From Candidatus Nanoarchaeia archaeon (lineage in GTDB: Archaea; Nanobdellota; Nanobdellia; CSSed11-243R1), in the NCBI GenBank assembly GCA_028713895.1, contig JAQTNH010000001.1:181808-245807 (forward strand): a stretch of 64,000 nt of DNA, in the 5' to 3' direction. The notes below the pieces were generated by a model. The model was not told the DNA's origin. It saw nothing but the letters and a program-made list of their open reading frames with translations, and made no database searches. The first letter of the stretch is position 1; the number at the start of each line of letters is the position of its first letter. The translations under genes were made by a program, and so were the position numbers. Positions 21,827-47,940 of the stretch are shown here, piece by piece.

Positions 21827-21862
21827 GCCTCCTTTCTTTTTTATTTTTTTATTATTTTCACT
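21827..21862 (+). terminator. Oligo-T tract (archaeal-type terminator) after giant gene 1
   Basis: TCCTTTCTTTTTTATTTTTTTATTATTTTCAC directly follows the stop codon. Confidence 0.4.
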
Positions 21863-22054
21863 CTAATAAAGTTTAAAAGGGAGCATGCTCTATTCTAAAG
21901 ACAGGGAAATGTTGATGGTTGAGGTGGAAAAATGAATTCTAAGGGAGAGAGCAGACTAAATTTGATTCTAAACAGGTTCGGAGCGTCAAAAGCATCCGCA
22001 TCACTGAAGATTTTCCTCGCACTCATCATTTTCGGCATAGCGTCAGCTTTCCTC
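21856..22054. repeat. Copy 2 of the duplicated promoter plus signal-peptide module
   Basis: See 15390..15589. The TATA box is at 21872..21878. Confidence 0.9.
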
Positions 22055-25000
22055 ATCTATGGAGTTTATGCCATAGACTTAAGGCACATCAGCGATGGCA
22101 ATGCAATCGCAGCAGATAACGAGACAATCGAAATTCCTGCGGAAGAAATTGCAGCCGAAGTTTCAGAAGCCACAGCACTTCCTGAAAAGCCCCAGGCAGT
22201 ATTTGCTGACAGGCCGGGTTTAACGCCGAAAGAAAAAGATATCAATGCAAAAAACACATTTGAAAGAAAATTTCCGTCTTTAGCTAACGAGTATATCCTG
22301 TTCCTTAAAAGCCCGATGAAGGTTGAAGGGCCATCCATTGCGTCTGTAACAAATTCAGAACAGCTGCAGAAAACAATGTCTGACAGGGGAATCAAGACGT
22401 ATAATACAATACCTGAACTCAATGCAATCATTGCCTATGTGCCTGATTCGCAAATTGACTCAGTAAATAGGATTCCTGGAGTGGAAAATGCTGAGCCCAT
22501 CAAATATTTTCATTCCCTGCTTAATGTAAGCATACCCACAATAAATGCGGATGATGTATGGGATTTGGGATACAATGGCACAGGCGTTGATGTCTGCATA
22601 ATTGACACGGGCGTTGACAAGTGGCATCCAAGCATCAAGCAGGCAACCGCGTCTGCAGATTTCACAACACACGACTGGTGCATTGACCTGGGCTTACAGA
22701 ATCATGGCTATGACGAGGGAGTATTCCAGTCAGTTGTCGGCTCAAACAGACAGTTTAACATGTCGCTGAATGTAACAAACTCAACAATGAACTGGCTTGA
22801 AGTCGGAGTGACATCTTATTACAACGGCAACTGGAGCGGTGATGAGCAAAGGTATGACATGACAATCTTTTGGCCAAATAACACAAAAATAAATGACACA
22901 AATTCCATTCCAAATGCAAATATGCGCATTGACGATGACTTAAATTATTGGGCGGTTCTGAACCTTTCAATCGGCAGTGTAACCGGGCTTTATACAATCC
23001 AAATAGATGAGACAAACATCGGAACCAGCATGGATTACCCGCTTGTTATTTGGGGCTCAAATGTAACATGGCTGTACACTAACTTTTACGAATACAGCGG
23101 TTACATCTGCGATACATTTAACACAACATACTCAAATTTTAATCCATACGAATCAACTGACAGCGTCTTTAAGGACAGGCGCGCATTCAACAACATTGTT
23201 GCAAATGATGACGCTGGACACGGGACTCATGTAGCAGGAACAGTAGCAAGCAACAACACAACTTATGAAGGAGTTGCGCCCGGCGCAAACTTGTATATTG
23301 CAAAAGCTCTTGACATGTACGGGATGGGTACAACACCAGGAGTTATAGACGCAATACTCTGGTGCCAGAGCAAAGATGTTGATTTAATAAGCATGAGCCT
23401 TGGAGGAGCTGCAGGACAGGGATGCAATGATTCTGAAGTTGTAATTTTGGACTCTGTGGTTGCAGACAATATGCTCCCAATTATTGCCGCGGGCAATGAA
23501 GGAGAACATGGCGCAGTTACAATAGGCTCGCCCGGCTGTGCAAGAAATGTTTTGACAATCGGCGCAGTTAATGACAGCGATGTTATAGCATGGTTCTCAA
23601 GCCAGGGGCCGACAAACGACACAATGCCACGAATAAAACCTGAAGTTGTTGCGCCTGGTGTAGCAATCTATTCAACAATACCAACAGGCAGATGGGACAA
23701 TATGCAGGGGACATCAATGGCAACACCGCATGTTGCGGGTTTGGCTGCCCTGATCAGGCAGGCGCATCCAACATGGACGCCTGGACAGATTAAAGCGGCA
23801 ATCATAAATTCCGCCAACCAGACAAAAGTTGGGTTTGGAGCGCATAATACTACATATGGATATGGAAGAGTTGATGCACTTGAAGCAGTCAATGACACGT
23901 GGGTGGCATCAATAAATATGACAAACGACACAATAGACAGCACTTTAAAAATGAATCTTACAGCTGCAAAAAACCTGAAGGTAACAATATACTGGGAGGA
24001 AAACGCATCAGACAGCCACAGCAGGATATATCTTAACCTGACAAACAGCAGCGGTGATATTGAGGACGAATCAAGTGACAGAAATGAAACAATACAGCTG
24101 GCTGCAGTAGCTTCAGCAGCAGCTGGCGAATACCACATAAGAGTAATCGGGGACCATGTACACGGTACAAAGATTGTCTGGATTGCAACAAATGTACCTT
24201 TATCCGAATCTATACCTCCTGTGCTGACGATTGTTTCGCCGCAGAACGCAACTTACGGAGCGTCTGTTGAGTTCAATGTTTCCACAAACGAGGCAGCAAG
24301 CTTATGCGTTTCCAGCCTGGACGGGGCAGCAAATGTCTCGATGGGCAACACTTCGTTAACTGCATGGAACTACACAAGCTCAGGCATGACAAGCGGCCTG
24401 CACAATGTAACGTTCTACTGCAATGACACTTCAGGAAACTGGAACCTTACACCTGTACGCTATTTCACATCTGACATCAGTGCGCCGGTTGTAACAATAA
24501 TATCACCGCAGGACACAACTTACGGAAAGACAGTTGCATTCAATGTTTCCACAAGTGAAGCGGCAGCGTGGTGCAACATCACAATGGATGGAATTGTAAA
24601 CATTTCGATGAGCAACACTTCAGCAACGTCATGGGCATACACAAATTCCAGCATGATAGACGGAGGGCACAATGTGACTTTCAGGTGCAATGATTTGTAC
24701 AACAACACAGGCACAAATCTGACCAATTTCACAGTTGATGCGGTTGAACCTTTGATAACAATTGTTGTGCCACAAAACACAACTTATGGAATCAACGTCA
24801 CATTTAACATAACCACAAATGAAGCAGCGTCAGCCTGTAATTTCAGCCTGGACGGGGCTGCAAATGTCTCAATGACAAATATTTCAACAACTGCGTGGGG
24901 ATACTTTAAGACAAACATGGCTGAGGTGCTGCATAACCTAAAGTTTTACTGCACTGACCTGTACGGCAACACAAATATAAGCGCCACTGTGTACTTTTCA

Positions 25001-27601
25001 GTCAACACGAGCTTCTTAGCAACAATAACATATCCTGCAAACCAGCCGTATAATACTGTAAACATGACTGCCAATGTCTCCACAACTGCAAATGCAGATG
25101 TGTGCCTGATAAGCATTGACGGCGGAGCAAATGCTTCGATGGGCAATTCAACTCCAACAGCATGGAACTACAGCATGATAGACTTGTCAGAAGACGTACA
25201 CAATCTCAGCGTGTGGTGCAATAACAGCGGCGGAACCCTTGCAACAACAGCAACAGGCTCATTCACAATTGATTTGACAGAACCGATGATAACGATGGTT
25301 GCGCCCGGAAACACAACGTACGGCACAACTGTGGTATTCAATGCAACAACAAATGAAGCAGCGTCATGGTGCAACTTCAGCCTGGACGAAACGACAAATG
25401 TGAGCATGACCGGAGCTGCAGCTTCATGGGCATACACAAATTCAAGCATGACAAATGGAGGGCACAATGTGACTTTCTACTGCAGCGACTTGGCAGGGAA
25501 CGCCAACAACAGCGCAATAAGAATTTTCACAGTTGATGCGATTTTACCTGTGATAACAATAAATTCCCCTGCAAATACGACATACAATACAACCACGACT
25601 TTGTTTAATGTTACAGCAAACGAAAATGCTTCATGGTGCAGGTATAGCCTGGACGGGGCTGCAAATGTCTCAATGACCAACAGCTCGATGACATCATGGT
25701 TTAACTCCACCACTGTAGCAGAGAACAACCATAATGTTGTGTTCTACTGCAGCGATGTTTACAGCAACATCAATTCTACAACTGCGCTGTACTTCATCAC
25801 AGACACAACAAAGCCGGTGATAGCAATAGTCTCGCCAGGCAACACAACGTACGCCAACACAACAATCTGGTTCAACATAACAGTAACAGAAACGCGCCCG
25901 GACAACTGCGTCTACAGCCTGGACGAAGCAGCAAATGCGACAATGACAAGGAGCGGAAGCGCATGGAATGCTTCAAAGAATGACTTTAGCGGAGAAACAC
26001 AGCACAACATAACATATTACTGCAATGATACAGCCGGAAATGTGAATGGCAGCGCAATGAGATACTTTGTAGTTGATACTGTCGCGCCGCGCGTTACGAT
26101 ACTCTTGCCGCTGAATAACACAAAATTCAATAACCAATATGTCAATTTCAGCGTAAATGCGTCTGACGCCAACATTTTACAGCTCAAGATGATAGAAGAC
26201 AATTATGTAGCGCAGACAGTGAATCTTTCCAGCTCAGGAATAACTAATGTAACACTGGACATCGGCCCTGGAACGCATGTAATAAAAGCGAATGTCACGG
26301 ACAGCGCAGGAAATTACAATTTAACTGACAGCACCATAGTTTTGATGGATACCATAGCGCCGGTAATGTCAGGCATCAGCGAAGAAGACATAAATGACAC
26401 CTGGGTAACGTGGCTGGTAACAACAGATGAAAATGCAACCTGTTTTGTAGAGTATGGCACCGACACAGGATATGGAAGCACAACAGGGAGTTCAACTGGA
26501 GAAGGTTCGCATGAACATACTTTAGCTGGGATTGATGCAGCAACGCTTTACCACTACAGATGGAACTGCACTGATACATACAACAACAGCGCAGTAAGCA
26601 GCGATTACACATTCATAACAGCAAACCACCAGACAGATACGATTGTCAACACAACAACAACAAACATGACATTCAATTTCACAGAGGACGGAACAAATGT
26701 AACAAGTGCAAAGATTGAGATTTCGCTCAATGAAACAATTGATGCGACTGTCAAAGTTACAAAAGAAATCACTCCGACTGCAAATTTCAGCGTGTCCGGC
26801 ATAACCTTGATTGGAACGTACTACACAATTGAGTCAGATGAGATTAACTCGACAAATGCCGAGTGGCTGATGATAAAGCTGTACTATGAAGACTCGCAGG
26901 TGCCAATCGGGATAAATGAATCCACATTAAGACTGTACTGGTACAACGCAACAAGTTCAGCATGGGAATTGGTTACTCCTGGCGGGGTTGACACAGGGAA
27001 CAACTATGTATGGGGCAACACAACGCACTTCAGCGAATATGCAATCGGTGGAGCAGCAGACACAGAGGAAGTAACACCAACATCACCAGGCGGCTCAAGC
27101 GGAGGAATACCTTCTGCGGGACTGACTCATGAAGTCAATCTTGACGTGCAGGTGACATACACGCAGGCAGGAATGGCTGTACGGGATATGATAAACTTCA
27201 CTTTGAACAGAGAGAAGCACGTGCTAACCCTCACTTCAATGATGCTGGATCAGGTTGTAGTTGACATAAGTTCGCTTTCGCAGAGAATAACAGTGGACAT
27301 GAACACGCCAAAAGCAGTTGACCTTGATGGAGACGGGATAAACGACCTTGAACTGAAACTGACAAAGATAATATCTGGACGGGCTGATTTGACGCTTACA
27401 AAGATTACAGCGACAGGAGAAACAGCAACACCTGAAACAGCTGCAACTCAAGCGCCTGCAGAGGCACCAGCAGAGGTTTCTACAGAGCAGCCAACAGGAA
27501 TCCAGGCGGTTTCAAGCAACTACGGAGTATACATTGTAGCTGCAATCGCACTGGCAGGGCTTGGAGTATTGATATATTACGTGTTCTTCAGAAAGAGGTA
27601 A
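21932..27601 (+). CDS. Giant surface-anchored S8 (subtilisin-like) serine peptidase (1889 aa) with about 8 Ig-like repeats and a shared C-terminal module plus TM anchor
   Basis: S8 catalytic triad: Asp in VCIIDTGVD, His in HGTHVAGTVAS, Ser in GTSMATPHVAGLAALI. The N-terminus is identical to gene 1. Eight ~95-aa repeats each carry a conserved Cys pair. The protein is dense in sequons. The C-terminal anchor is IVAAIALAGLGVLIYYVFFRKR. Confidence 0.9.
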   Translation: MNSKGESRLNLILNRFGASKASASLKIFLALIIFGIASAFLIYGVYAIDLRHISDGNAIAADNETIEIPAEEIAAEVSEATALPEKPQAVFADRPGLTPKEKDINAKNTFERKFPSLANEYILFLKSPMKVEGPSIASVTNSEQLQKTMSDRGIKTYNTIPELNAIIAYVPDSQIDSVNRIPGVENAEPIKYFHSLLNVSIPTINADDVWDLGYNGTGVDVCIIDTGVDKWHPSIKQATASADFTTHDWCIDLGLQNHGYDEGVFQSVVGSNRQFNMSLNVTNSTMNWLEVGVTSYYNGNWSGDEQRYDMTIFWPNNTKINDTNSIPNANMRIDDDLNYWAVLNLSIGSVTGLYTIQIDETNIGTSMDYPLVIWGSNVTWLYTNFYEYSGYICDTFNTTYSNFNPYESTDSVFKDRRAFNNIVANDDAGHGTHVAGTVASNNTTYEGVAPGANLYIAKALDMYGMGTTPGVIDAILWCQSKDVDLISMSLGGAAGQGCNDSEVVILDSVVADNMLPIIAAGNEGEHGAVTIGSPGCARNVLTIGAVNDSDVIAWFSSQGPTNDTMPRIKPEVVAPGVAIYSTIPTGRWDNMQGTSMATPHVAGLAALIRQAHPTWTPGQIKAAIINSANQTKVGFGAHNTTYGYGRVDALEAVNDTWVASINMTNDTIDSTLKMNLTAAKNLKVTIYWEENASDSHSRIYLNLTNSSGDIEDESSDRNETIQLAAVASAAAGEYHIRVIGDHVHGTKIVWIATNVPLSESIPPVLTIVSPQNATYGASVEFNVSTNEAASLCVSSLDGAANVSMGNTSLTAWNYTSSGMTSGLHNVTFYCNDTSGNWNLTPVRYFTSDISAPVVTIISPQDTTYGKTVAFNVSTSEAAAWCNITMDGIVNISMSNTSATSWAYTNSSMIDGGHNVTFRCNDLYNNTGTNLTNFTVDAVEPLITIVVPQNTTYGINVTFNITTNEAASACNFSLDGAANVSMTNISTTAWGYFKTNMAEVLHNLKFYCTDLYGNTNISATVYFSVNTSFLATITYPANQPYNTVNMTANVSTTANADVCLISIDGGANASMGNSTPTAWNYSMIDLSEDVHNLSVWCNNSGGTLATTATGSFTIDLTEPMITMVAPGNTTYGTTVVFNATTNEAASWCNFSLDETTNVSMTGAAASWAYTNSSMTNGGHNVTFYCSDLAGNANNSAIRIFTVDAILPVITINSPANTTYNTTTTLFNVTANENASWCRYSLDGAANVSMTNSSMTSWFNSTTVAENNHNVVFYCSDVYSNINSTTALYFITDTTKPVIAIVSPGNTTYANTTIWFNITVTETRPDNCVYSLDEAANATMTRSGSAWNASKNDFSGETQHNITYYCNDTAGNVNGSAMRYFVVDTVAPRVTILLPLNNTKFNNQYVNFSVNASDANILQLKMIEDNYVAQTVNLSSSGITNVTLDIGPGTHVIKANVTDSAGNYNLTDSTIVLMDTIAPVMSGISEEDINDTWVTWLVTTDENATCFVEYGTDTGYGSTTGSSTGEGSHEHTLAGIDAATLYHYRWNCTDTYNNSAVSSDYTFITANHQTDTIVNTTTTNMTFNFTEDGTNVTSAKIEISLNETIDATVKVTKEITPTANFSVSGITLIGTYYTIESDEINSTNAEWLMIKLYYEDSQVPIGINESTLRLYWYNATSSAWELVTPGGVDTGNNYVWGNTTHFSEYAIGGAADTEEVTPTSPGGSSGGIPSAGLTHEVNLDVQVTYTQAGMAVRDMINFTLNREKHVLTLTSMMLDQVVVDISSLSQRITVDMNTPKAVDLDGDGINDLELKLTKIISGRADLTLTKITATGETATPETAATQAPAEAPAEVSTEQPTGIQAVSSNYGVYIVAAIALAGLGVLIYYVFFRKR
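24210..26350 (+). repeat. About 8 tandem ~270-290-nt Ig-like repeats, each with 2 conserved Cys, inside giant gene 2
   Basis: Repeating pattern P(V/L)(I/V)T(I/M)VSPxNTTYG...NV(S/T)TNEAA(S/A)xC...SLDGAANVSM...HNVTFYC(N/S)D... Confidence 0.7.
26628..27420. repeat. Copy 2 of the duplicated C-terminal module
   Basis: See 20840..21640. Confidence 0.85.
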
Positions 27602-34149: not shown

Positions 34150-34210
34150 TGCACAAGTTAGGAGATTCTGCGGAAGTATATGCTTTTTGGAAGCCTGCAG
34201 GGGAAAACAT

Positions 34211-34217
34211 TTAAAAA
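34211..34217 (+). promoter_or_regulatory. TATA box of the ORFan operon
   Basis: TTTAAAAA lies 29 nt upstream of the GGTGGGGTTCT leader. Confidence 0.45.
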
Positions 34218-34223
34218 CACATG

Positions 34224-34237
34224 TATACTGCAGGATA
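34224..34237 (+). promoter_or_regulatory. Palindromic operator-like box TATACTGCAGGATA (copy 1 of 4)
   Basis: Imperfect palindrome centred on CTGCAG, sitting between the TATA box and the leader motif. The same box occurs at 38383, 42921 and 43788. Confidence 0.5.
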
Positions 34238-34239
34238 CA

Positions 34240-34250
34240 GGTGGGGTTCT
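34240..34250 (+). promoter_or_regulatory. GGTGGGGTTCT leader motif
   Basis: Invariant 11-mer, 10-23 nt upstream of start codons at 8 loci. Confidence 0.55.
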
Positions 34251-34260
34251 GGGGCAAGTT

Positions 34261-34524
34261 ATGGCTAGTGAAGTGTATAAAAAAGTTATTGATATAATGA
34301 CACAAAGTGGGGTAAATCCTCTCAAAGCAATTTATGAGTTGCAGACTTATTGTGAAGAATCGAAAATATCTACGGAGGATTTTGATTATGGACACATCAA
34401 AGAATATAGGTTACACTTTTCAGAACCCGAACACGTAAAGAATTTGGAAAATAAAGTGGGTGCTCTTGCTGTCAAAAAAATTATGAGACGCCTTGAAAAG
34501 GTTGTTGAGGCAATAGAAAAATAA
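34261..34524 (+). CDS. ORFan operon gene 1 (87 aa)
   Basis: Start MASEVYKK, 10 nt after the leader motif. Confidence 0.5.
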   Translation: MASEVYKKVIDIMTQSGVNPLKAIYELQTYCEESKISTEDFDYGHIKEYRLHFSEPEHVKNLENKVGALAVKKIMRRLEKVVEAIEK

Positions 34525-34533
34525 AGGCATATT

Positions 34534-35103
34534 TTGGGTTTTAAGAGAGTAATGAGGCTAAGGATGGATGAACTGATAAAAATTCTGGACAAGGTGGGGA
34601 TTTGCCAGTGCGATAATTTGGACAAAGAACAGAAGGCTGTAGCAAAGGCAGTCAGTTTATACCTGAACAATAAACCCTGTTTGTACAGTGATGTTCTTGC
34701 CTGTGCATTGAGATTTATAGAACACAGGGGGCAGAAGGTTGCAACATGTGAAAGATATGCATTTCATCTGGAAGACGTTTCAAGTCAGCCATCAAATCCG
34801 TGTTTTGAACAAGAAGGAGTTTATTCGTCCAGCCTGCAGGATATGTTAGACAAAATAGTAAACGAAAGGGATGCGCCAGAATGTGCTGATTTTGACTACA
34901 CTATCAGGAGCAAAGAACCTGTAAAAAAGCCTGGTGCAGATGGATACCTGGACAAAATAAAGCCAATCACAGCCGCAAGCATGTTTTTTTACAAAGACAG
35001 AATACAGTTTTATAAATATCTCAAAAAATGCCTGAAAAATCCTGCCAAGATAACATATCAGGTTGATTTAGAAATGGCAGGGCCGTTGGTGCAGAACAGA
35101 TGA
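34534..35103 (+). CDS. ORFan operon gene 2 (189 aa, several Cys)
   Basis: Same strand, 9-nt gap. Confidence 0.5.
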   Translation: MGFKRVMRLRMDELIKILDKVGICQCDNLDKEQKAVAKAVSLYLNNKPCLYSDVLACALRFIEHRGQKVATCERYAFHLEDVSSQPSNPCFEQEGVYSSSLQDMLDKIVNERDAPECADFDYTIRSKEPVKKPGADGYLDKIKPITAASMFFYKDRIQFYKYLKKCLKNPAKITYQVDLEMAGPLVQNR

Positions 35104-35807
35104 ACCCAAATAAACTGTCAAACAATGACCTGAGATGGATTCATCAAAACCTGGGCAGAGTCCTTGAGGGATACGAAGCGTATATCGGCAATGGCATCGA
35201 GCTCAGGGCAGAAGGCCCTTTTGTACTGACTCCTGAAAAGCCGAACACTGCCAGAACCATTGTTACTGTATGGCAGGACGATGAAAAATTAGCAAAAATG
35301 TTTGCCATCCTGTTTAAGCACGGAGACGGAACAGGAGACGCAAACACCTACAAGCCAGGGCAGCTGATTGTGCCGTACTACTTACAATTTGAGAACAAGC
35401 CTGAAAGGATTTTTCCACGAAAAAAAGACTGTGAGGAAGAAATATTCCTGCCATTCTTCTCTGTAATCGGGGGAAAGACTTATGACAATATTGTTTCGCT
35501 GGAAGAGCTGACTGTTGACAGTGTTGAAAATCCAAAAACAATTGTCAGAGCCAAGACTCTGGGCAGTTCGGTAAAAGAATACGAAAATATGATATGCGGG
35601 GCGGATATTAAAAAACAACAGCCTTACCACCTGCGCACCACAGGATACAAGAACGGAGCAAGGTTCGGGGACCCGCACGCCATATATCAAAGGGACGACC
35701 TGGAATCAATACAGGTAGCAGGATTCATTTCGCTTGAAAAAGAAAATCCGCTCATCAGAATTTTCAGGGAGATACCTGCGCAGCCGTACAAAAAATGCTA
35801 TGTTTAA
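35100..35807 (+). CDS. ORFan operon gene 3 (235 aa)
   Basis: ATGA overlap with gene 2. Confidence 0.5.
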   Translation: MNPNKLSNNDLRWIHQNLGRVLEGYEAYIGNGIELRAEGPFVLTPEKPNTARTIVTVWQDDEKLAKMFAILFKHGDGTGDANTYKPGQLIVPYYLQFENKPERIFPRKKDCEEEIFLPFFSVIGGKTYDNIVSLEELTVDSVENPKTIVRAKTLGSSVKEYENMICGADIKKQQPYHLRTTGYKNGARFGDPHAIYQRDDLESIQVAGFISLEKENPLIRIFREIPAQPYKKCYV

Positions 35808-35819
35808 CGCTTTCGGACA

Positions 35820-36473
35820 ATGAAGAATATGACAAACAAATACCTTTTTTTTGCTGAAAAACTGGACGAGCTTTCAGAATTGTGTAATGACAAAGCCCTG
35901 GAAATGGGGGCGCGCAGCAAAAATCTTGCGCATATACTGTTAAGGGAACAGACGCCAGAATTTTACAGAATCTTTGTTGACATGGCACGTCTGGGATACA
36001 AGTACTCAATACCAAGCAGCACAGGTATTCTACTGAATTTTGTGGGCACAAAAGCCAAGGACAAAATTGTGACTCACATAAACCCCCAAAAAGCAATTCC
36101 CTGCGCTTTATTTTGCAAGAGCTTAGAATGGAGACACATGGACTATTTTCTTAAAAAATTAAAATGCACCCCATACGGACATGAAACAGAAATTTACTAT
36201 GTCGGGGGCCCAGAGATTATGGAAGCAATTGGTATTGCTGTTGAGAAAGGAGGGCCTTCATGCGAAGAGCGTTTTAATGACGGCCACAGGCTCTGCTTTG
36301 ATGCGAATAATATTTACAAGCTTAACAAACAAGACTTTGTGGGTTACCTTATGGATATGGTTACAGAAAAGGGGAAACACAATTATTTTGAATTAAGAAA
36401 CGCGGCTTTCCAGGCAGCAGGCACGAAAGAGCTCGGGATAGAGGCTGCGATAGAACTGATGATGGAAGGATAG
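35820..36473 (+). CDS. ORFan operon gene 4 (217 aa)
   Basis: 12-nt gap. Confidence 0.5.
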   Translation: MKNMTNKYLFFAEKLDELSELCNDKALEMGARSKNLAHILLREQTPEFYRIFVDMARLGYKYSIPSSTGILLNFVGTKAKDKIVTHINPQKAIPCALFCKSLEWRHMDYFLKKLKCTPYGHETEIYYVGGPEIMEAIGIAVEKGGPSCEERFNDGHRLCFDANNIYKLNKQDFVGYLMDMVTEKGKHNYFELRNAAFQAAGTKELGIEAAIELMMEG

Positions 36474-36476
36474 GAT

Positions 36477-36791
36477 GTGATTTTAGATATGGGCAAAAAG
36501 ACTGCGCCAGAATGCGTAGAAATTGACATGGCAAAAGGGAACCAAAAAGAGATAGCTGCGCGCATTGGCAAACATTCTGAAAACGGAACGCTTGAGGTAA
36601 GGCTGCTGTTCCCGGATGTCTGGAACGCAGACACATACTGCCTGAGCGGAAGGCTTCCAATTCTAGAGAAACCGCCTGTGCATCTGCTGCTGTACAGCCT
36701 GGCCAGCAATTACAACCAATTGTACTCATGTTCATACAAAAGTGGGGACAGCCATGCTGTGCTTGAGCCCCTTATGAAAAAAGAGCGTTGA
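36477..36791 (+). CDS. ORFan operon gene 5 (104 aa)
   Basis: 3-nt gap. Confidence 0.45.
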   Translation: MILDMGKKTAPECVEIDMAKGNQKEIAARIGKHSENGTLEVRLLFPDVWNADTYCLSGRLPILEKPPVHLLLYSLASNYNQLYSCSYKSGDSHAVLEPLMKKER

Positions 36792-36800
36792 ATTGCTGTT

Positions 36801-37346
36801 TTAATCTTCTGTCGTATCCCCGATACAGCTTATAATCTCTATGCTGCCCTCTGCAATGGAGTTCATGCCCAGTAAAGGGATAACTTTTATTGTTTTTTTA
36901 TTGATAACCTGAAGTGAATAATCCGCATAAGGAAATTCCAGATAACCGGCTTGTTCAGACAGTTCCAATGCTTTAGCAAAATTTGGAAGCTGTATTTTAT
37001 ACTCCTTTTCAGAATCTGTTAATTCTTCAAGGAAGGGGCGATAAAAAAGAGTAAAACCATAGCTTATTTTTGATTTATATCCATGTTCAACAATTTCAGC
37101 AGAATATACTTGTACATAATGGTCATGTACTTGGCTCTCTATCTCCTCACGAGAACCCTTAACACTAAGGATATGCAGTTTTGGCGTTTCTTCCATAAAA
37201 GGAGCAAAAAATTCCTTATTGGCTTTTAGGTATTCACTAAAATCTGGCTTGTAGCCTGGATATCTCTCTTTTATTTTTTCCCTTATTGCTTCAATCCTCT
37301 TTTTTATGAAGTCTTTTACAAAAGTAGTATTTGTCATATCTAACAT
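36801..37346 (-). CDS. Conserved hypothetical protein, paralog A of 39976..40509 (C-terminal ISCIGDTTED)
   Basis: About 70% identity to the paralog on the opposite strand 2.6 kb away. Confidence 0.55.
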   Translation of the reverse strand: MLDMTNTTFVKDFIKKRIEAIREKIKERYPGYKPDFSEYLKANKEFFAPFMEETPKLHILSVKGSREEIESQVHDHYVQVYSAEIVEHGYKSKISYGFTLFYRPFLEELTDSEKEYKIQLPNFAKALELSEQAGYLEFPYADYSLQVINKKTIKVIPLLGMNSIAEGSIEIISCIGDTTED

Positions 37347-37420
37347 ATTGGAATAACCATTAATAAACTTATTTCACTGAAGAGGGGTTAACAAGTCAGT
37401 TAAACTTCGCTGAATTGCTG

Positions 37421-38209
37421 TTAATCGAAGTTTGAGAATACGAGTATGCTGCTCTCAGGATGTGAGTAACGAAGGTTCTTTTCTTTTAAAAAGTGCCCCC
37501 TGAGATAAGAATCCACAAACTGTTCAAGGGAATACCATGTTGCATCTTCTCCCTCGAAATGCTTGACTTTTTTGCCGAACTTAAACCGCAGGTCATAGGT
37601 GGTGATTGTGCCAGCCTCTTCAGTTTCAACAGACTCTTTCTTAGCCAGTGTTATTTCGCCTTTCAGGACATCATCAACATAGACCAAAATCTTATTTTTT
37701 TCGCTGATAGGTTCGACCTTTTTATTGGCGTAAAACTCTGAAAATGCATTTTTGCCCTTATGTTTTACAGCATCCAAAAAGTAATTCTCGGCTTCACTAG
37801 AAGAAGGCGCATTTTTGTGAGCCATCACTTTCTTCAGGCTGGGCATAAAATTTTCAGATGTCTTTACAATAGCATTCAAATCCCGTCCTCCAGTGACATG
37901 AGTCAATCTTAACTTTCCTGCTTTGGCTTTTTCTGCAAGCTTTATCAGCTTTTCCTCGTTTTTGGGACTAATTTTTTTATTGTAAGGCAGCCCTGGCTTT
38001 GGGCTGTCTTTCAACAAAGAAAAATACTGGTCAGAAGTCAACAGAAAGTCCAATGCATTATAATCAATGTCTGTCAGGGAGTCTTTGTATACATTGAGAC
38101 TGCGATACTCCTTGTTGAGATGGTACTCTTTCTGGATATCCCTAAATTTATCTGACTTTGGCTTTTTATCCAAAGGTACTCCAGTTACGTATTTTATTAT
38201 GTGTTCCAT
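37421..38209 (-). CDS. Hypothetical protein (262 aa from MEHIIKY)
   Basis: ORF 37421..38257 with a probable internal start. Confidence 0.45.
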   Translation of the reverse strand: MEHIIKYVTGVPLDKKPKSDKFRDIQKEYHLNKEYRSLNVYKDSLTDIDYNALDFLLTSDQYFSLLKDSPKPGLPYNKKISPKNEEKLIKLAEKAKAGKLRLTHVTGGRDLNAIVKTSENFMPSLKKVMAHKNAPSSSEAENYFLDAVKHKGKNAFSEFYANKKVEPISEKNKILVYVDDVLKGEITLAKKESVETEEAGTITTYDLRFKFGKKVKHFEGEDATWYSLEQFVDSYLRGHFLKEKNLRYSHPESSILVFSNFD

Positions 38210-38382
38210 GATATGTAGCCTAGCATATCGTGATTTATAAATCCAACTCGCCAGCAAAACTACGCTTATTTCTGTTAGAAGAAGTTCTTAGAAAAAAGCC
38301 TTAATCCTTAAACTTCAGAAGACTTTTAGGAATCGTGCCATAGCTCTTTGATTTACAGCTTCGTTAAATTTAAAAGCAAGTA

Positions 38383-38396
38383 TATACTGCAGGATA
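38383..38396 (+). promoter_or_regulatory. Palindromic box TATACTGCAGGATA (copy 2)
   Basis: Preceded by CGTTAAATTTAAAAGC (BRE/TATA). Here the GGTGGGGTTCT leader is replaced by GGTGCTATAAAG. Confidence 0.5.
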
Positions 38397-38410
38397 TAGG
38401 TGCTATAAAG

Positions 38411-38737
38411 ATGGGATACCTGAGGGTCATAACTGAATTGCATGCCAGGAGAGCAGGGCTTGTGCTGGAAGAAAGAGAACTGTTTGAAAACTTAGGCAGC
38501 TCTGTTGATATTGGACAAGCAGCAAAACGAGGAGCTTATTCTTTACAGATAACAGAAACCGTGCACAAAAGCGAATCAGGAAAAATAAGCATAGACGAGT
38601 TTGTGGACATCATAGACACCCAAAAATCTGCAATAGTGTTCAGCATGGAAGGCAGTAGAATCTTTGACAGGGCAGAAGCAGAAAGAACGATAGAGCAAGA
38701 GATTAAAAAGTATTTTGTGGATCCTTTAGTTCTTTGA
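38411..38737 (+). CDS. Hypothetical protein (109 aa)
   Basis: Start MGYLRV, 15 nt after the palindromic box. Confidence 0.45.
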   Translation: MGYLRVITELHARRAGLVLEERELFENLGSSVDIGQAAKRGAYSLQITETVHKSESGKISIDEFVDIIDTQKSAIVFSMEGSRIFDRAEAERTIEQEIKKYFVDPLVL

Positions 38738-38786
38738 GCGCTCTCGGGGCGAAAGATTTTTATCTGTATACAGTTTAGAAACCTGC

Positions 38787-39134
38787 ATGGAAACAACAAT
38801 GTGGATGATTTTGGGCGCAATAATTGTGATTGCCCTGATATACGCAGTTGTTTTGGTTCACAAAAACAAAAAACTGCTAAAGCCATGGACTGACGAAACA
38901 TGGATTGAATCAGGCGGAATGTTTCTTTTGATCGGGTATGTCCTTTCTTTGCTGGGCATTGAAATGAGCGTATTAATGGCTATTGGTTCAATTTACTTTG
39001 TAATCGGGTTTGTTAAAAAACATATTATAAAAGAGAAGAAACTGAATGAAAGGCAGAGAATGTATGCAACAATAGGAATAGCTGTATTGGTTGCGCTGTG
39101 TGTTATTATTTTCTTAATCTTTGTTGTCAAATAG
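38787..39134 (+). CDS. Membrane protein (3 TM)
   Basis: 115-aa hydrophobic ORF. Confidence 0.5.
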   Translation: METTMWMILGAIIVIALIYAVVLVHKNKKLLKPWTDETWIESGGMFLLIGYVLSLLGIEMSVLMAIGSIYFVIGFVKKHIIKEKKLNERQRMYATIGIAVLVALCVIIFLIFVVK

Positions 39135-39260
39135 AGTCATGAAACGCTTTCTGGCAAGTTCTTTTGAGTTCCAGCTCTCTCAGGGTAATTTATTGTCAAT
39201 ATTGAAGAAAAATAAAAGAAAAATAAGAAAAAAGTTGGGGAATGACTAAATTTGTTAAAA

Positions 39261-39356
39261 TTACTCTGTTTCTTCTTGTGTTTCTTCAGCTGCGTTCTCT
39301 GCTGGTGCTGCTTTTTCTTCTTCGTGCTTGTGTGCGCTCTTTTTTGGTCTTGCCAT
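39261..39356 (-). CDS. 31-aa micro-protein MARPKKSAHKHEEEKAAPAENAAEETQEETE
   Basis: Strong Shine-Dalgarno site AAGGAGGT 7 nt upstream of the ATG. The longer ORF-track version is rejected. Confidence 0.3.
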   Translation of the reverse strand: MARPKKSAHKHEEEKAAPAENAAEETQEETE

Positions 39357-39547
39357 GGTAGAACCTCCTTTGATTTGGGTTCGTGATTTCAGAAAAAGGG
39401 TATTAATACGCCTTTCGAAAGGTATATAGGGAGTTTTGGGGGCTAGGGGTGTGGTCGGGGTATTTGTTTTCAATATGGAAATTAAAGCAGAGAAAGGTTT
39501 ATAAGTGACTACTTGTTAGTAATGATTTAGTAGCGGGTGGACAAAAA

Positions 39548-39934
39548 ATGGGAAAACTGTCTGGAATACAAAAGATATTGGCGGAATCCTCTGATAAAGA
39601 GTTAAAAACAAGTTTAGCAAAAGGAAGGATAAAGATTCCAGGAGTAGAATTATCGGTAGATTTTGATGCAATGCTGGCGATAAAGGATATTAAATCCTTT
39701 TTAAAAAAGCCTCCAGAGGAATACTTGATATATATTTCTTGTCCGTCTTGTCCAAACCATGACATAGATTCATTCACATTAAGTTATAATTCAACATCAG
39801 ATACTTTAGAATACTTTTCGGAAGCAGATAAAGATTGTATTGATCTTGGTGAAAATGGATGCAAAAATTATAAGTCCTGCAAGATGGTTAAGCTGTACAA
39901 TGAGCTTAAGAAACAAGAAAGTTCTGAAAACTAA
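39548..39934 (+). CDS. Hypothetical protein (128 aa, Cys cluster CPSCPNH...C...C)
   Basis: ORF. Confidence 0.45.
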   Translation: MGKLSGIQKILAESSDKELKTSLAKGRIKIPGVELSVDFDAMLAIKDIKSFLKKPPEEYLIYISCPSCPNHDIDSFTLSYNSTSDTLEYFSEADKDCIDLGENGCKNYKSCKMVKLYNELKKQESSEN

Positions 39935-39975
39935 TTTTTTCTTAAAATGTTCGCTGAATATGGAGTGATGATAAA

Positions 39976-40509
39976 ATGAAAAAATCTGATACTACGTTTA
40001 TAAGAGAATTCATAAAAAAGAGAATCATAAGGATAAGAAAAGAAGTGAATGAAAGATATCCAAACTTTAAAACAGATTTTAGCGAATATTTGGCAGCCAA
40101 CAAGGAATTTTTTGCACCTTTCATGGAAGAGAAACCTGAGCTGCATACCCTCACTGTCAAAGGTTCTCGTGAGGAAATAGAAGACAAAGTTCGTGACCAC
40201 TACATACAAATGTATTCTGCTGAGATTGTGGAAGAAGGGCGCAAATCAAAAGTAAGCTATGGTTTCAGTCTGGTATATCGTCCTTTTATTGAAAGATTAA
40301 CAGACCCTGAAAAGGAGTATACAATTCAACTTCCAAACTTTACTAAAGCCATGGGGCTGTTGGATCATTTAAAATTTCCTTATGAGGATTATTCAGTTCA
40401 AGTCATCAAGAAAAAAACTATAAAGATTATTCCATTATTAGGCATAGAATCTCTTGCACAAGGAGGAATAGAAATTATAAGTTGTATCGGGGATACGACT
40501 GAAGATTAA
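39976..40509 (+). CDS. Conserved hypothetical protein, paralog B of 36801..37346
   Basis: Preceded by the repeat TTCTTAAAATGTTCGCTGAATAT. Confidence 0.55.
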   Translation: MKKSDTTFIREFIKKRIIRIRKEVNERYPNFKTDFSEYLAANKEFFAPFMEEKPELHTLTVKGSREEIEDKVRDHYIQMYSAEIVEEGRKSKVSYGFSLVYRPFIERLTDPEKEYTIQLPNFTKAMGLLDHLKFPYEDYSVQVIKKKTIKIIPLLGIESLAQGGIEIISCIGDTTED

Positions 40510-40706
40510 AAATGACTGTTAATTGCCTTAACCGATTTTTTATTTCAGTAATTCTTTTGGGTCCCAGCTCTCTTAGGGGCAGGTTTAAAGGGAATTCAGC
40601 GCAGGGTTTTTGAGTCGATTACTGGAAATAGTGGACAACACCCTAAATTTGATAAAGATAAACCCTCATTAGATTTTACTATTGCAAAAATTCGTGAGGT
40701 GATATT

Positions 40707-41050: not shown

Positions 41051-41602
41051 GTGAACGGTATGGTACAACAGTTTAGATTATCCAAAGTTTCGGGAAAATT
41101 TATTGAGATACTTCTGTGGCTTATCGGGCTAAATCGCGAAGAAATCTATGTTTCAGAGCTAAGCAAGGAACTAAAAATGTCAAAGTCAACAGTCATAAAA
41201 TGGCTTGAGGAATTAACCAAATGGGAGCTTGTAACCGAACGAAAGCGCGGAAACATGCATTATTACAGGATAAATGGAGAAAACCCAATTATAAAGCAAT
41301 TCAAAATCCTGCAAAGCGTTTCTGAATTGACTCCGCTCATGAAAAGCTTGAAAGGTATGGCTGAAGTTTATTTGTTTGGCTCTTCAGCGCGAGGCGAGGA
41401 CAGGCCAGACAGTGATTATGACATTCTTGTTGTAACCAAACTTAATTCAAATGAAGTCTTTAAGAAACTTAAGAATGAGGACAGACTCAAAAACAGGAAA
41501 ATAAGCCTGCTTATAGTAAAACCCTTTGAATATGCAGACATGGCAAAACATGATCCTGCACTTTACCAAAGGATAGAAATAGACAAAATCAGGCTGGTAT
41601 AA
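41051..41602 (+). CDS. Minimal nucleotidyltransferase (MNT) with N-terminal wHTH
   Basis: NTase motif LFGSSARGEDRPDSDYDILVV. Confidence 0.75.
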   Translation: MNGMVQQFRLSKVSGKFIEILLWLIGLNREEIYVSELSKELKMSKSTVIKWLEELTKWELVTERKRGNMHYYRINGENPIIKQFKILQSVSELTPLMKSLKGMAEVYLFGSSARGEDRPDSDYDILVVTKLNSNEVFKKLKNEDRLKNRKISLLIVKPFEYADMAKHDPALYQRIEIDKIRLV

Positions 41603-42075
41603 TGGACATAAACGAAGCAAAAGATGAAGGACTAATAAGTGATTTGCCTAAAGAAGAAAATGTTACAGACATTGTTGAAAAAGAAATAAAGTCTGCAGAG
41701 TATGACTTAAGCGAAGCAAAAGAAGGGTTCAGCAAGGGCAAGACAAAATGGCCTGTAGTACAGGCCTATTATGTTATATTTCATGCTGCAAGAGCGCTGA
41801 TGTATAAGTTCAAGCTGAAGGAAATAAAGCATGAGGGAATAGTTGTTTTCCTGGAAGAGAGGGTAAAAGTCGGAAAACTGAGAAACGAGTTTGTGACAAT
41901 ATTCAAATCGCTTAAATCAACTAGGGAAGACTCAAACTATGACAGCGATTTCAGCGAAGAACGCGCAAGAAAATCAATAGAAAGCGCAGAAGAGTTTTTG
42001 AAAGAAATGAAGGCGCAGCTGAGCGAAAAAAAGGCCGGAAAAACCGGCAAACAGTTTGTTTTCTTGTTGTTGTAA
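41602..42075 (+). CDS. HEPN-domain protein, partner of the MNT (MNT-HEPN module)
   Basis: Start overlaps the MNT stop. The HEPN-like motif is TREDSNYD. Confidence 0.65.
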   Translation: MDINEAKDEGLISDLPKEENVTDIVEKEIKSAEYDLSEAKEGFSKGKTKWPVVQAYYVIFHAARALMYKFKLKEIKHEGIVVFLEERVKVGKLRNEFVTIFKSLKSTREDSNYDSDFSEERARKSIESAEEFLKEMKAQLSEKKAGKTGKQFVFLLL

Positions 42076-42159
42076 AAGTCCAATAATTCTTTGAGTTTAG
42101 GGCTCTTTGGGCAGGGTTTTTGGGCTAAAAAGGGCACGCACTTATAACGAACGCAAGAA

Positions 42160-42513
42160 TTATCTGTCCTTATACCCAAATTTTTTATTATATTTTGGAT
42201 GATCAATGATGTCTAAAACAAAAGCAATGATTTCTATTTCGCTTTCATTGTTTGTAAGAGTATAAAGCATGCGCCAAAAATTCGGGAGCTCTATCCTGAA
42301 AAGGTTTGTGATGCCATATTTTTGTTTGTACTCTTCAGGTATGAGCTTCTTGGCTATCGGGTCACCATAGTGAGGATTAGATTTCAGAAATTCTACTTTG
42401 TTGTTCAGAGCATTAAGAATTATCTTTTCTGTTTTTGAGCCAGGCGCCTGTTCATTGAGGTATTTGTAAACTTCCTCTGCTTCAGGCGAAAGTATGACCC
42501 TTATTATCTTCAT
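42160..42513 (-). CDS. RelE/YoeB-like toxin candidate
   Basis: 117-aa basic protein. The C-terminal IEIIAFVLDIIDH pattern resembles YoeB/Txe. It overlaps the upstream small gene by 4 nt. Confidence 0.4.
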   Translation of the reverse strand: MKIIRVILSPEAEEVYKYLNEQAPGSKTEKIILNALNNKVEFLKSNPHYGDPIAKKLIPEEYKQKYGITNLFRIELPNFWRMLYTLTNNESEIEIIAFVLDIIDHPKYNKKFGYKDR

Positions 42514-42788
42514 AGTTCCACACCTGCTGCAATTGCCCTCTTAAGGTTCTGATTTGTATTGTGTATCCATGTTATGCCTTTCATTGTAATCAATATTTTA
42601 TTGCTTTTTTCAAGATATTCAAGAATTATTTTAAGGGTGTTGTGATTAATCTGTTTGGGAAGCCTTCGCTTAAGTTCAGCTATTGTAATTGCGCTTTCAT
42701 CCATGTTTGTCAGGACATTTTCCACCATGAAGACAGTATTAAGAGTAGGTGAATGTTCCAATTTTTCCATTTGAACCTGTTTTGCCAT
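42510..42788 (-). CDS. Putative antitoxin / small DNA-binding protein
   Basis: Start MAKQVQM. It is coupled to the toxin-like gene. Confidence 0.35.
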   Translation of the reverse strand: MAKQVQMEKLEHSPTLNTVFMVENVLTNMDESAITIAELKRRLPKQINHNTLKIILEYLEKSNKILITMKGITWIHNTNQNLKRAIAAGVEL

Positions 42789-42920
42789 ATTTATCACTCC
42801 GTATCATTTAGTTATTAATAAATAAGTAATAGTTACTATTTTATATAGTTACTCTTCGTTTGAGGTTCCAGTAATTTCTTGAGTCCTGGGGGCACGCTTC
42901 GTTAACTTTAAAAACCAATA

Positions 42921-42934
42921 TATACTGCAGGATA
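42921..42934 (+). promoter_or_regulatory. Palindromic box TATACTGCAGGATA (copy 3)
   Basis: Flanked by the TATA box TTTAAAAA (42907) and the leader motif (42940). Confidence 0.5.
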
Positions 42935-42939
42935 TAAGT

Positions 42940-42950
42940 GGTGGGGTTCT
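42940..42950 (+). promoter_or_regulatory. GGTGGGGTTCT leader motif
   Basis: See the motif family. Confidence 0.55.
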
Positions 42951-43717: not shown

Positions 43718-43787
43718 TGATGCTGTTTGATAATCCAGTAATTCTTTGAGTCCTGGGGGCACGGTTCGTTAACTTTAAAAACGACTG

Positions 43788-43801
43788 TATACTGCAGAAT
43801 A
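43788..43801 (+). promoter_or_regulatory. Palindromic box TATACTGCAGAATA (copy 4)
   Basis: TATA box at 43774 and leader motif at 43808. Confidence 0.5.
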
Positions 43802-43807
43802 TAGGTT

Positions 43808-43818
43808 GGTGGGGTTCT
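43808..43818 (+). promoter_or_regulatory. GGTGGGGTTCT leader motif
   Basis: See the motif family. Confidence 0.55.
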
Positions 43819-43832: not shown

Positions 43833-44258
43833 ATGAATGGTGATAAGATGGATTACAGGCTGCCTAACAGGTATGTTAAAGCTACAGACCACAACAAAGA
43901 ACTGGAAGTGAATATGGACGCGGAAAGAATTCTTAAAATATGGTGTTCTGGCTGCAGCAAAAATAAGAAATGCGATTACATGCCAACATTGGTTTCAATG
44001 ATTGGCGTCACTGAAGTTGATAAAGCAGACGAGGAAAATTTGATGGAAACTATAACATTCATATACAGGCCTGATATGGACAGCAGCAGAGCTCCCTTTT
44101 GCAAGAATGCAGACGAGAAATCGATTGTACGTTTTGAGGAAGCTTCTGAAAGATTACGCAAGGAAATCGAGCTTAAAGAAAATTACAAGCGATCCCAAAA
44201 AGATAAATATCTTGGCTTAGAGATTAAAATAATTGGAGACACAGTAAACGATGAGTAG
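43833..44258 (+). CDS. WCSGC-motif protein, paralog 1 (141 aa)
   Basis: Shares the YRLP..YV...WCSGC...C...C pattern with the next gene. Confidence 0.55.
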   Translation: MNGDKMDYRLPNRYVKATDHNKELEVNMDAERILKIWCSGCSKNKKCDYMPTLVSMIGVTEVDKADEENLMETITFIYRPDMDSSRAPFCKNADEKSIVRFEEASERLRKEIELKENYKRSQKDKYLGLEIKIIGDTVNDE

Positions 44259-44281: not shown

Positions 44282-44704
44282 ATGAGCAATGACAAAAAAA
44301 ATTACAGACTGCCTGAAGGGTATGTTGAAACTGACGGAGATTGGGGAGTAGACTATAAAACAGCAGTTAATGTGCTCAGGAACTGGTGTTCTGGCTGCAA
44401 GAAAAAGGAAGATGGAAATTGTGAAACTGTGATAGACCTTGTAGGTTTATTGAGTATGGAAGAAATCCCTGGCGTAGCTTATGAGTTCATGACACGAATC
44501 AAGCCTAAGAAGGGTGGAAGAAGCATTCTTTACTGCACAAAGGCTGACAGCCTATCAATTGCATATTTTGAGGAAAGGCAGAGGGACTTAGAAAGAGAAA
44601 AAAGAAAATTAAAGGCTGCTATCGATGAAGGCTTTGCCGAAGCAGAAAAAGAATTAGCAAAAGGAAGAGAGGCAAGACTAAGAAAGTTGGGATTAAAGAA
44701 ATAG
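44282..44704 (+). CDS. WCSGC-motif protein, paralog 2 (140 aa)
   Basis: Paralog of 43833..44258. Confidence 0.55.
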   Translation: MSNDKKNYRLPEGYVETDGDWGVDYKTAVNVLRNWCSGCKKKEDGNCETVIDLVGLLSMEEIPGVAYEFMTRIKPKKGGRSILYCTKADSLSIAYFEERQRDLEREKRKLKAAIDEGFAEAEKELAKGREARLRKLGLKK

Positions 44705-46858: not shown

Positions 46859-47575
46859 TCACCCTTTTTTAATTTTGTAGTATATTTTCTTTCCAATGGC
46901 TTCTTTTTCCAGGGCGCCCAGCTCTGCGAGCCTGTTCAGCCTGAATGAAGCTGTTGAACGGGATAAATTGATATAGTCAGCGAGCTGGTTTGCTGTGACG
47001 CGCTCCTGGCGGCCGACCCAGTCAATAACTTCCTTGTCCTTGATTGTGAGCTGGCTTATGTGAGTTATTGCGCTGTCCAGAGTCTGTGAGGAAACTCCTT
47101 TTTCAGCTATTTCGTCCTTTGTTCGCTGCAATAGGTCAAGTATAAAGTCTAATTTCTCTAAATCATTGAGTTTTTCAAGGCGATGGTCCATTGACTTAAG
47201 AACATGATTTAATTCCTCTAAAATCTGGGAATTTATGATTTTAACCTGTGATAAAGGATGCTGCTGCGCTGCCTTTATAGTGTCTTCCCACTGCTTTATT
47301 GCTATGTGCGAAGCTTCTTCCTGCAGCTTTAGCTTTGTTGGCTCGTGTTGAACAGTTGATTGGCGCTCCTGCCTTATTTTGGCTAAATCTGCCTCAAAAT
47401 CATGTTTTAAGTGTTCGTCAACAGGTTCGTCAGTTGTTGATTGCTGTTCAACAGAATTTTTTTGCTCGTCTAGAAGGTAGGGCCTAACTATTTTTTCAGA
47501 ATCCATCTTTTCTACCGGAAGGCTGTCTTCAGGCTTGCTGCTGAAAAGACGTTTTAAAGCGTCTAATATCCCCAT
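46859..47575 (-). CDS. Transcriptional regulator with C-terminal wHTH and N-terminal coiled coil
   Basis: The wHTH segment is LADYINLSRSTASFRLNRLAELGALEK. Confidence 0.6.
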   Translation of the reverse strand: MGILDALKRLFSSKPEDSLPVEKMDSEKIVRPYLLDEQKNSVEQQSTTDEPVDEHLKHDFEADLAKIRQERQSTVQHEPTKLKLQEEASHIAIKQWEDTIKAAQQHPLSQVKIINSQILEELNHVLKSMDHRLEKLNDLEKLDFILDLLQRTKDEIAEKGVSSQTLDSAITHISQLTIKDKEVIDWVGRQERVTANQLADYINLSRSTASFRLNRLAELGALEKEAIGKKIYYKIKKG

Positions 47576-47639: not shown

Positions 47640-47940
47640 CGCGCGAGCGCACCTGTTGGCGCAGTTCCAACACATCCAACACTTTAGTCAACAACTTCGA
47701 CACATTCGACACATCATCCAACACATTCGACAGTCAACACATCCAACACTTCCAACATATGTTGAACACATGCTTAATTTGCCTATTTTTTCCTTCAAAT
47801 TACGTGGTTTTAGTGTTCAACAGATTCGTCAAAAACCCAACAGATTCAACAGTCAACACATTCGACAGTCAACAAGTTCGACAACAAGTTCGACACATTC
47901 GTCAACAAGTTCGACAGATGGTCCAACACATAGATTAGAG
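47640..47940. repeat. Iteron-like degenerate direct-repeat array with a 9-bp inverted repeat
   Basis: More than 20 copies of short units (TTCGACAC/G, ATCCAACAC, GTCAACAC/AAG). The inverted pair is GTTGAACAC (47762) and GTGTTCAAC (47815). Confidence 0.6.

Follow-up and report, generated by a model that had tools for sequence, protein, structure and literature searches.

Many conserved hypothetical families distinguish DPANN archaea, above all the Woese- and Pacearchaeota, and few of the DPANN families of unknown function are common to bacteria (PMC8204110). Here, we analyzed a 64,000-nt stretch (the window, to whose positions all coordinates below refer) of contig JAQTNH010000001.1 from a Candidatus Nanoarchaeia archaeon, a member of the DPANN (kingdom Nanobdellati) with a genome of roughly 1 Mb. 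The subject is a run of 12 genes, g1 to g11 plus a micro-gene of 31 amino acids (aa), that opens with five closely spaced genes, g1 to g5. An initial annotation, made from the sequence alone, had taken these five for an operon of ORFans and a candidate multi-component system with a role in host interaction, defence or a mobile element. The described entities to which the locus comes closest are flexible genomic islands, with which it shares deviant composition and codon use, many lineage-restricted small genes, toxin-antitoxin (TA) pairs, duplicates and presence/absence differences, whereas no integrase, tRNA border or flanking repeats were found here and the middle of the operon (g3 to g5) is native-like in composition. 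On balance, we regard g1 to g5 as a probably co-transcribed but evolutionarily loose, lineage-specific accessory gene set in a flexible island of a DPANN genome, a reading that we consider probable while leaving real room for doubt. The five genes are the following.

34261-34524, plus strand: g1, small soluble protein, 87 aa from an internal ATG of a 114-aa open reading frame (ORF)
34534-35103, plus strand: g2, Cys-rich soluble protein, 189 aa (TTG) or 179 aa (ATG at 34564)
35100-35807, plus strand: g3, 235 aa, large undescribed family of DPANN and Candidate Phyla Radiation (CPR) members, predicted beta-sandwich
35820-36473, plus strand: g4, 217 aa, or 214 aa from the ATG at 35829
36477-36791, plus strand: g5, 104 aa (GTG), or 100 aa from the ATG at 36489

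The ORF list reproduced the tight packing that had been described (87, 189, 235, 217 and 104 aa, all on the plus strand between 34261 and 36791), as it did every other coordinate of the initial annotation; the intergenic gaps g1-g2, g2-g3, g3-g4 and g4-g5 measure 9, -4, 12 and 3 nt. Since these gaps are tight and a single promoter module lies upstream, g1 to g5 are probably read as one transcript. The idea of a multi-component system fared worse, for the related loci that we recovered hold these genes apart from each other: g1 to g5 are not a co-inherited functional unit. In hidden Markov model searches of all the fetched loci, the only co-occurrence is that of g3 with g5, in a single lineage. 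Profiles of g1, g2, g4, g5, g7 and the paralogs g6 and g11 found none of these genes beside approximately 30 independent g3 loci, bar g5 in one close relative. Where g3 occurs in distant genomes, it is solitary amid unrelated core genes, its neighbours being an acyltransferase with acetyl-CoA synthetase, NFACT, exosome subunits, ribosomal proteins, EF-Tu, TFIIB and PolB, and neighbour enrichment around the g3 homologues revealed no recurrent partner family. Among closer relatives (60 to 80% nucleotide identity), loci L012 and L013 carry a g3 homologue followed directly by g5 (P0011), with no g4 and with unrelated genes on either side; a second g3 relative (66% identity) has a PIN gene after it, and a third is preceded by a divergent DUF7670 gene. 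The g4 relative in L010 and L011 lies without g3 or g5, amid unrelated genes next to a deoxyhypusine synthase gene, the g5 relative P0095 (L018) comes after two unrelated ORFs, a g7 relative (L020) is solitary between CysRS and an RHH/PIN pair, and the g1 relative P0057 (L015 to L017) follows a SET-domain gene, without g2 to g5. Given its adjacency in one close relative, g5 is a possible small partner of g3.

The individual genes are real. In every gene, the annotated frame outscores the other five in codon log-likelihood, and GC content is higher at the first than at the second codon position, as usual. The ratio of nonsynonymous to synonymous substitution rates (dN/dS) was scored where a relative or paralog was close enough, which left g4 with saturated synonymous divergence (dS) and g7 to g10 without a suitable partner; it ranges from 0.15 to 0.48 across g1, g2, g3, g5, the micro-gene and the paralog pair, with values against the nearest relatives of 0.48 for g1, 0.35 for g2, 0.22 for g3, 0.20 for g5 and 0.33 for the micro-gene. 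Combined with the coding signal, these ratios show the tested ORFs to be real genes under selection. In the metagenome-assembled genome GCA_028713185.1, every gene of the cluster is already public under the label hypothetical protein, and the 235-aa product of g3 is matched letter for letter on its contig JAQTPB010000006.1 and on a Logan contig of run SRR22315509. Public gene calls use a later ATG for g2, g4 and g5 (179, 214 and 100 aa) and an earlier start for g1 (114 aa). For g1, the 87-aa start is better than that of the automatic gene callers, because the promoter module falls within the 114-aa ORF and the homologue P0057 is itself 87 aa long. All proteins but one are predicted to be soluble and cytoplasmic. 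As had been proposed, none shows a recognisable domain: searches of the 12 proteins against Pfam, PHROGs, NCBIfam and PADLOC returned nothing below an E value of 0.009, and searches of PDB sequences, by profile or single sequence, with g1, g2, g3, g4, g5, g7 and g11 returned nothing below 0.06.

The term ORFan is only loosely right for g1, g2, g4, g5 and g7, each of which has a few metagenomic relatives (1 to 5 among the matches listed); these genes are narrowly distributed rather than unique. Among the matches listed, g1 has one relative (P0057; 61% identity, 87 aa), and the sole relative of g2 (P0108, 43%) is found on a 907-bp contig (L014) with another upstream neighbour. Two relatives each were listed for g4 (P0033, 40%; P0128, 31%) and g5 (P0011, 74%; P0095, 47 to 52%), and four full-length ones for g7 (26 to 33% over the full-length alignment, 29 to 36% over the matched stretches) along with a repeat protein. 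The AlphaFold2 model of g7 (pLDDT 73.7) found no match in a fold search of the PDB. For g8 and g10, which like g9 were left out of both large protein searches, local searches of the fetched loci and of profile libraries returned no relative.

For g3, the term ORFan is wrong, as this gene belongs to a large DPANN/CPR family. In an exhaustive HMMER search with g1 to g5 and g7 joined end to end against 1.84 billion cluster representatives, 251 matches reached an E value of 1e-3 or lower, and at least 135 of the 150 listed fall on g3. According to a further search and a scan that took one genome from each GTDB species, the family occurs in Woesearchaeota, Aenigmatarchaeota and Nanoarchaeia and, among CPR bacteria, in Saccharibacteria, Peribacteria and Gracilibacteria/Altimarinota (loci L036, L041 and L043 to L046); one Aenigmatarchaeota genome, STD1_92, has two copies (L021 and L038). 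This spread over ultra-small archaea and bacteria suggests transfer between them. The family resembles the conserved hypothetical families of the Woese-/Pacearchaeota module (PMC8204110) in being widespread in Woesearchaeota and their allies, unannotated and without a Pfam model, and differs from them in occurring also in CPR bacteria; it would count among the few hypothetical families of DPANN that are also found in bacteria.

An alignment of 38 g3 family members has 16 invariant positions (F72, D76, G77, T78, G79, P106, K109, E114, L134, T180, D191, P192, H193, Q205, G208 and F209). They belong to a series of motifs, KPNTAR, F-x-P-G-DGTGD, PR-x-K-x4-E, SLEELTVD, TTGY, RFGDPHAI and QVAGF, whose invariant cores are DGTG, P..K....E, DPH and Q..GF, a pattern typical of an active or ligand-binding site. 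From this alignment, AlphaFold2 produced a very confident, mostly beta model (pLDDT 94.8, pTM 0.92), so that structure prediction, which the initial annotation had recommended, delivered a fold but only weak, cupin-like matches in Foldseek. Searches with the model against the PDB and the BFVD viral models gave E values of 3e-3 or higher and TM scores of 0.2 to 0.35; cupins dominate, followed by other jelly-rolls. Resemblance to the cupin/double-stranded beta-helix fold comes from the top PDB matches (CapF, canavalin, auxin-binding protein and cysteine dioxygenase, with probabilities of 0.9 to 1.0) and from viral cupins among the weak BFVD matches. Set against it are the low TM scores and the lack in g3, which has one invariant His, of the HxH...E...H metal motifs of classical cupins. 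No cupin model in Pfam matches any of the 38 members, and the family has no Pfam, NCBIfam or PDB sequence match. Membership in the cupins is thus not established, and the fold is possibly cupin-like; we describe g3 as the representative of an undescribed, probably enzymatic beta-sandwich family.

Two related loci bear on the history of the arrangement, L015 being the one whose DNA comparison tells the most. In L015, positions 1134-1443 correspond to window 34240-34544 (g1) and, 41 nt past this match, positions 1485-1871 correspond to window 39109-39497, the region of the micro-gene. Further on come a match to window 40543-40609, a DUF4258/MazE TA pair that does not occur in the window, and the 77-aa gene of window 40707. 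Two stretches of the window, 34545-39108 (g2 to g9) and 39498-40542 (g10 and paralog B, g11), are therefore missing from L015. At the first junction, a 25-aa ORF has a g2-like start (TTG, -SFKD- versus -GFKR-) and a g9-like end (-FFMLVVK and stop versus -IFLIFVVK and stop), the last 26 nt of g9 having survived fused to the 5′ end of g2. Because this ORF joins the start of one gene to the end of another, a deletion in the L015 lineage would be more parsimonious than an insertion in the window. In L012, a 9-nt remnant, AAGGATAGG, precedes g5 and weakly suggests that g4 once lay between g3 and g5 and was then lost. Short genes separated by a recurring intergenic module, and an indel relative to L015 (39498-40542) that takes out exactly one promoter-plus-two-gene unit, recall integron gene cassette arrays. 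Unlike in integrons, the shared module is a 5′ promoter with a leader rather than an attC site, no integrase was found, and the larger L015 indel ends inside ORFs, which fits plain deletion.

These junctions feed the rival explanation that g1 to g5 make up a true five-component system, ancestral to a genus-level clade and lost piecemeal in relatives that no longer need it. The gaps of -4 to 12 nt behind a single promoter agree with it, and tight spacing with a 4-nt overlap is typical of functionally coupled genes. The L015 fusion ORF implies that the g2...g9 block once followed g1 there too, the remnant ahead of g5 in L012 could stem from the end of a g4 since lost, and g3 and g5 are adjacent in L012 and L013. 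We nevertheless hold such a system to be unlikely, since its parts appear to work separately: g1, g3 with g5, g4, and g5 each persist alone under purifying selection in relatives, and the approximately 30 g3 homologues show no trace of the other genes. Base composition also separates the members, as GC content at third codon positions (GC3) is 0.29 in g1 (and in g6, g10 and g11) versus 0.44 to 0.53 in g3 to g5, which are near core genes in this respect. Several points do weigh against our own preference for a loose accessory set. The L015 junctions suggest that the g1-g2...g9 block was ancestral and later deleted, and the L012 junction hints that g4 formerly separated g3 from g5; in that case, the cluster could long have been a unit, one that is now decaying in relatives. 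The related contigs are also few and most are short (0.9 to 16 kb), so that missing partners may in part be an effect of where contigs end; in L014 the g2 relative runs up to the contig edge, and L048 breaks off immediately past g3. The arrangement may be partly ancestral to a small clade, yet its pieces are freely lost and the genes left behind persist under selection, which speaks against a dependence of the genes on one another.

The promoter ahead of g1 is present as it had been described, with TATA box, palindrome and leader, but it is not specific to the operon. Its elements, and the intergenic repeat that recurs in the region, are located as follows.

34199-34260, plus strand: promoter/leader module of g1, with TATA-like TTTAAAA at 34210-34216, palindrome TATACTGCAGGATA at 34224-34237 and leader GGTGGGGTTCT at 34240-34250
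34199-34250, 38358-38402 (upstream of g8), 42896-42950 and 43763-43818, plus strand: copies of the module, from repeat and motif scans
40536-40660, plus strand: intergenic repeat (…CAGTAATTCTTT…), which recurs after gene ends in the window, L012, L014 and L015

Upstream of g1, TTTAAAA is followed after 7 nt by TATACTGCAGGATA, then by GGTGGGGTTCT and, after 10 nt, by the ATG. The module conforms to the consensus TTTAAAARC-N5-TATWCTGCAGRATA-(T)AAGTGGTGGGGTTCT, in which the 14-bp palindrome reads TATWCTGCAGWATA. Both the palindrome and the leader motif are strongly over-represented in the window (11 matches versus 0.28 expected, and 8 versus 0.42, respectively). The full module occurs four times, before g1, g8, the MBL gene and a 141-aa gene, and the leader GGTGGGGTTCT alone eight times, always on the plus strand and 10 to 23 nt ahead of a start codon. 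Relatives L010 and L015 to L019 carry the same module ahead of unrelated genes (SET, deoxyhypusine synthase, an 805-aa gene and others). We rejected the palindrome promoter as a specific mark of the g1 to g5 operon for this reason; since the module precedes unrelated genes in both the window and the relatives, it is a lineage-wide promoter type. Archaeal transcription starts approximately 25 nt downstream of the TATA box, and the palindrome therefore sits at the expected transcription start, the usual place for a repressor operator, which it may represent. The scan for bacterial promoters and terminators is uninformative for an archaeon. The recurring intergenic element (...CCAGTAATTCTTTGAGTCC...) was observed at 40536-40660, 39157-39185, 42079-42098, 42867-42886 and 43734-43753, and in L012, L014 and L015, directly past gene ends and ahead of the promoter module; possible identities are a terminator and a small repeat family.

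Downstream of the five genes, the content described between two paralogs holds, namely three further ORFs (g7, g8 and g10), a membrane protein with three transmembrane segments and the 31-aa gene.

36801-37346, minus strand: g6, paralog A, 181 aa, or 178 aa from the ATG at 37337, with its own TATA-like box
37421-38209, minus strand: g7, soluble, probably leaderless, 262 aa
38411-38737, plus strand: g8, 108 aa
38787-39134, plus strand: g9, membrane protein with 3 transmembrane segments, 115 aa
39261-39356, minus strand: micro-gene, 31 aa
39548-39934, plus strand: g10, 128 aa
39976-40509, plus strand: g11, paralog B, 177 aa

The identity of about 70% assigned to the paralogs was confirmed: g6 and g11, on opposite strands, are 71% identical over 177 aa (E value of 1e-82) and end in the same C-terminal sequence, IEIISCIGDTTED. 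Their DNA forms an inverted repeat of approximately 520 nt with 76 to 82% identity, the copies lying 2.6 kb apart. Synonymous divergence between them (dS of about 1.1) marks this inverted duplication as old, and the dN/dS of 0.145 shows that selection still maintains both copies. Among 5.8 billion clustered proteins, neither has a relative except the other. A direct repeat matching at 16 of 18 nt, TGAATTGCTGTT(TT)AATC, brackets paralog A (36789-36806 and 37411-37426) and overlaps the stop codons of g6 and g7; it was considered as an insertion scar and rejected as too short.

The best-conserved DNA of the region is 39109-39497 on the minus strand, 81% identical to its counterpart in L015. It holds the micro-gene (MARPKKSAHKHEEEK...), whose product is acidic-tailed and which has a perfect GGAGGT ribosome-binding site, together with the upstream region of this gene and approximately 150 nt of nearly invariant T-rich sequence downstream. 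A noncoding RNA here is unsupported, with no Rfam match, a weak consensus fold and no covariation (two sequences). When a 22-nt piece of the micro-gene region was used to scan metagenomes, the sole match was the contig recovered before.

The cluster forms the left end of a low-GC region of approximately 16 kb (34.0 to 50.0 kb), in which GC content is 0.33 to 0.42 versus about 0.45 outside and codon log-likelihood is lower than in core genes. The region thus deviates from its flanks in both GC content and codon log-likelihood, and its content varies among close relatives, L015 having gaps and a different TA pair and L012 lacking g4. Apart from the cluster, it holds an MNT/HEPN pair, a RelE-like pair, an MBL-fold protein, a second paralog pair, and Cys-rich secreted and winged-helix proteins. 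What stood of the broader proposal is the presence of real, uncharacterised genes in a compositionally deviant, variable region beside TA pairs. Two TA-type pairs lie to the right of the cluster, at 41051-42075 and 42160-42797; one comprises a nucleotidyltransferase with an N-terminal helix-turn-helix and a HEPN protein, whereas the other (117 and 95 aa, minus strand) is RelE-like by eye and has homologues that adjoin the g3 relative in L037. The genes of the second paralog pair, in tandem at 43833-44258 and 44282-44704 (141 and 140 aa, 29% identical), share an NWCSGC motif, and each has its own GGTGGGGTTCT leader. At 47660-47930, dense short direct repeats (TTCGACA and YCAACA units, with periods of 9 to 21 nt) form two blocks around an AT-rich spacer, upstream of a gene for a 238-aa protein with a C-terminal winged-helix domain (46859-47575, minus strand); the array looks like iterons of an origin or a multi-site operator.

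Low GC content and atypical codon use over 34 to 50 kb, many small genes without relatives alongside TA pairs, and the iteron-like array beside the winged-helix gene would all agree with an origin of the locus as the remains of a DPANN plasmid or virus that had integrated, in which case the genes would encode the small, fast-evolving proteins typical of mobile elements. We consider this origin decidedly improbable. Integrase, Rep, capsid, terminase and packaging genes were absent from scans with Pfam and PHROGs for the cluster and with Pfam for most of the larger ORFs of the island and its flanks, several small island ORFs falling outside the scan. No long, att-like direct repeats were found bracketing 34 to 50 kb, and the only tRNA gene in the window (Phe, at 59993) is approximately 10 kb past the island. 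Relatives were lacking in IMG/VR (searched with g3, its family, g7 and g11), in GenBank phages (tblastn with g3 and g11) and in PLSDB (blastn with the whole stretch as DNA), and g3 belongs to a chromosomal family found among core genes. A novel antiviral defence cluster, in a defence island beside the MNT/HEPN and RelE-like modules, is highly improbable: although the TA modules adjoin, content varies among relatives and PADLOC gave a marginal match of g2 to type IV Cas11, this match (E value of 0.009, the next being 0.014) is at chance level for 10 queries against 5027 models, the 12 proteins have no nuclease, ATPase, helicase, methylase, TIR, SIR2 or similar domain, and the components do not co-occur. 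The roles in defence, host interaction or a mobile element that had been offered as examples were thus not borne out, with no significant PADLOC match, no integrase, capsid or Rep, no viral, phage or plasmid match, and a soluble, cytoplasmic prediction for all proteins but one. Elsewhere in the window, at 15467-27601, two very large adjacent genes encode proteins of 2119 and 1889 aa, the second with a subtilase (Peptidase_S8) domain; both may be surface proteins.

In the accessory-set reading that we favour, the stretch would be the left end of an AT-rich flexible island (~34.0 to 50.0 kb) in a DPANN genome of roughly 1 Mb. The small, soluble, lineage-restricted accessory genes would be kept by purifying selection, yet be gained, lost and reshuffled singly or in pairs, and g1 to g5 would be read as one transcript from a promoter of TATA box, 14-bp palindrome and leader that is common to many unrelated genes. 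The sole member with a wide family would be g3, normally solitary among core genes and with g5 as a possible partner. A more far-reaching and rather doubtful proposal is that g3 is the founding member of an enzyme family so far undescribed, with a beta-sandwich fold, an invariant D-G-T-G(-D)...P-R-x-K...E...G-D-P-H signature and, among the genomic matches recovered in this analysis, a distribution almost entirely in DPANN/CPR episymbionts, which here would have gained small partners (g5, then g4) and been placed under the palindrome-controlled promoter of an accessory-gene set.

As a system, the cluster carries little weight; the evidence favours an ordinary flexible island, made up of the lineage-specific genes of which DPANN genomes are full. 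Its stereotyped promoter offers a concrete way into the study of how transcription is controlled in a lineage of uncultured archaea. The lead with wider reach is the g3 family, which is large, strongly conserved and outside Pfam and NCBIfam, and has a confident model without a close solved relative. Because of these features and its presence across DPANN and CPR, g3 is a tractable structural and biochemical target for what ultra-small symbionts share. If g3 does found an enzyme family of ultra-small episymbionts, it would follow that the gene has passed between the domains and that its role is bound up with their way of life.

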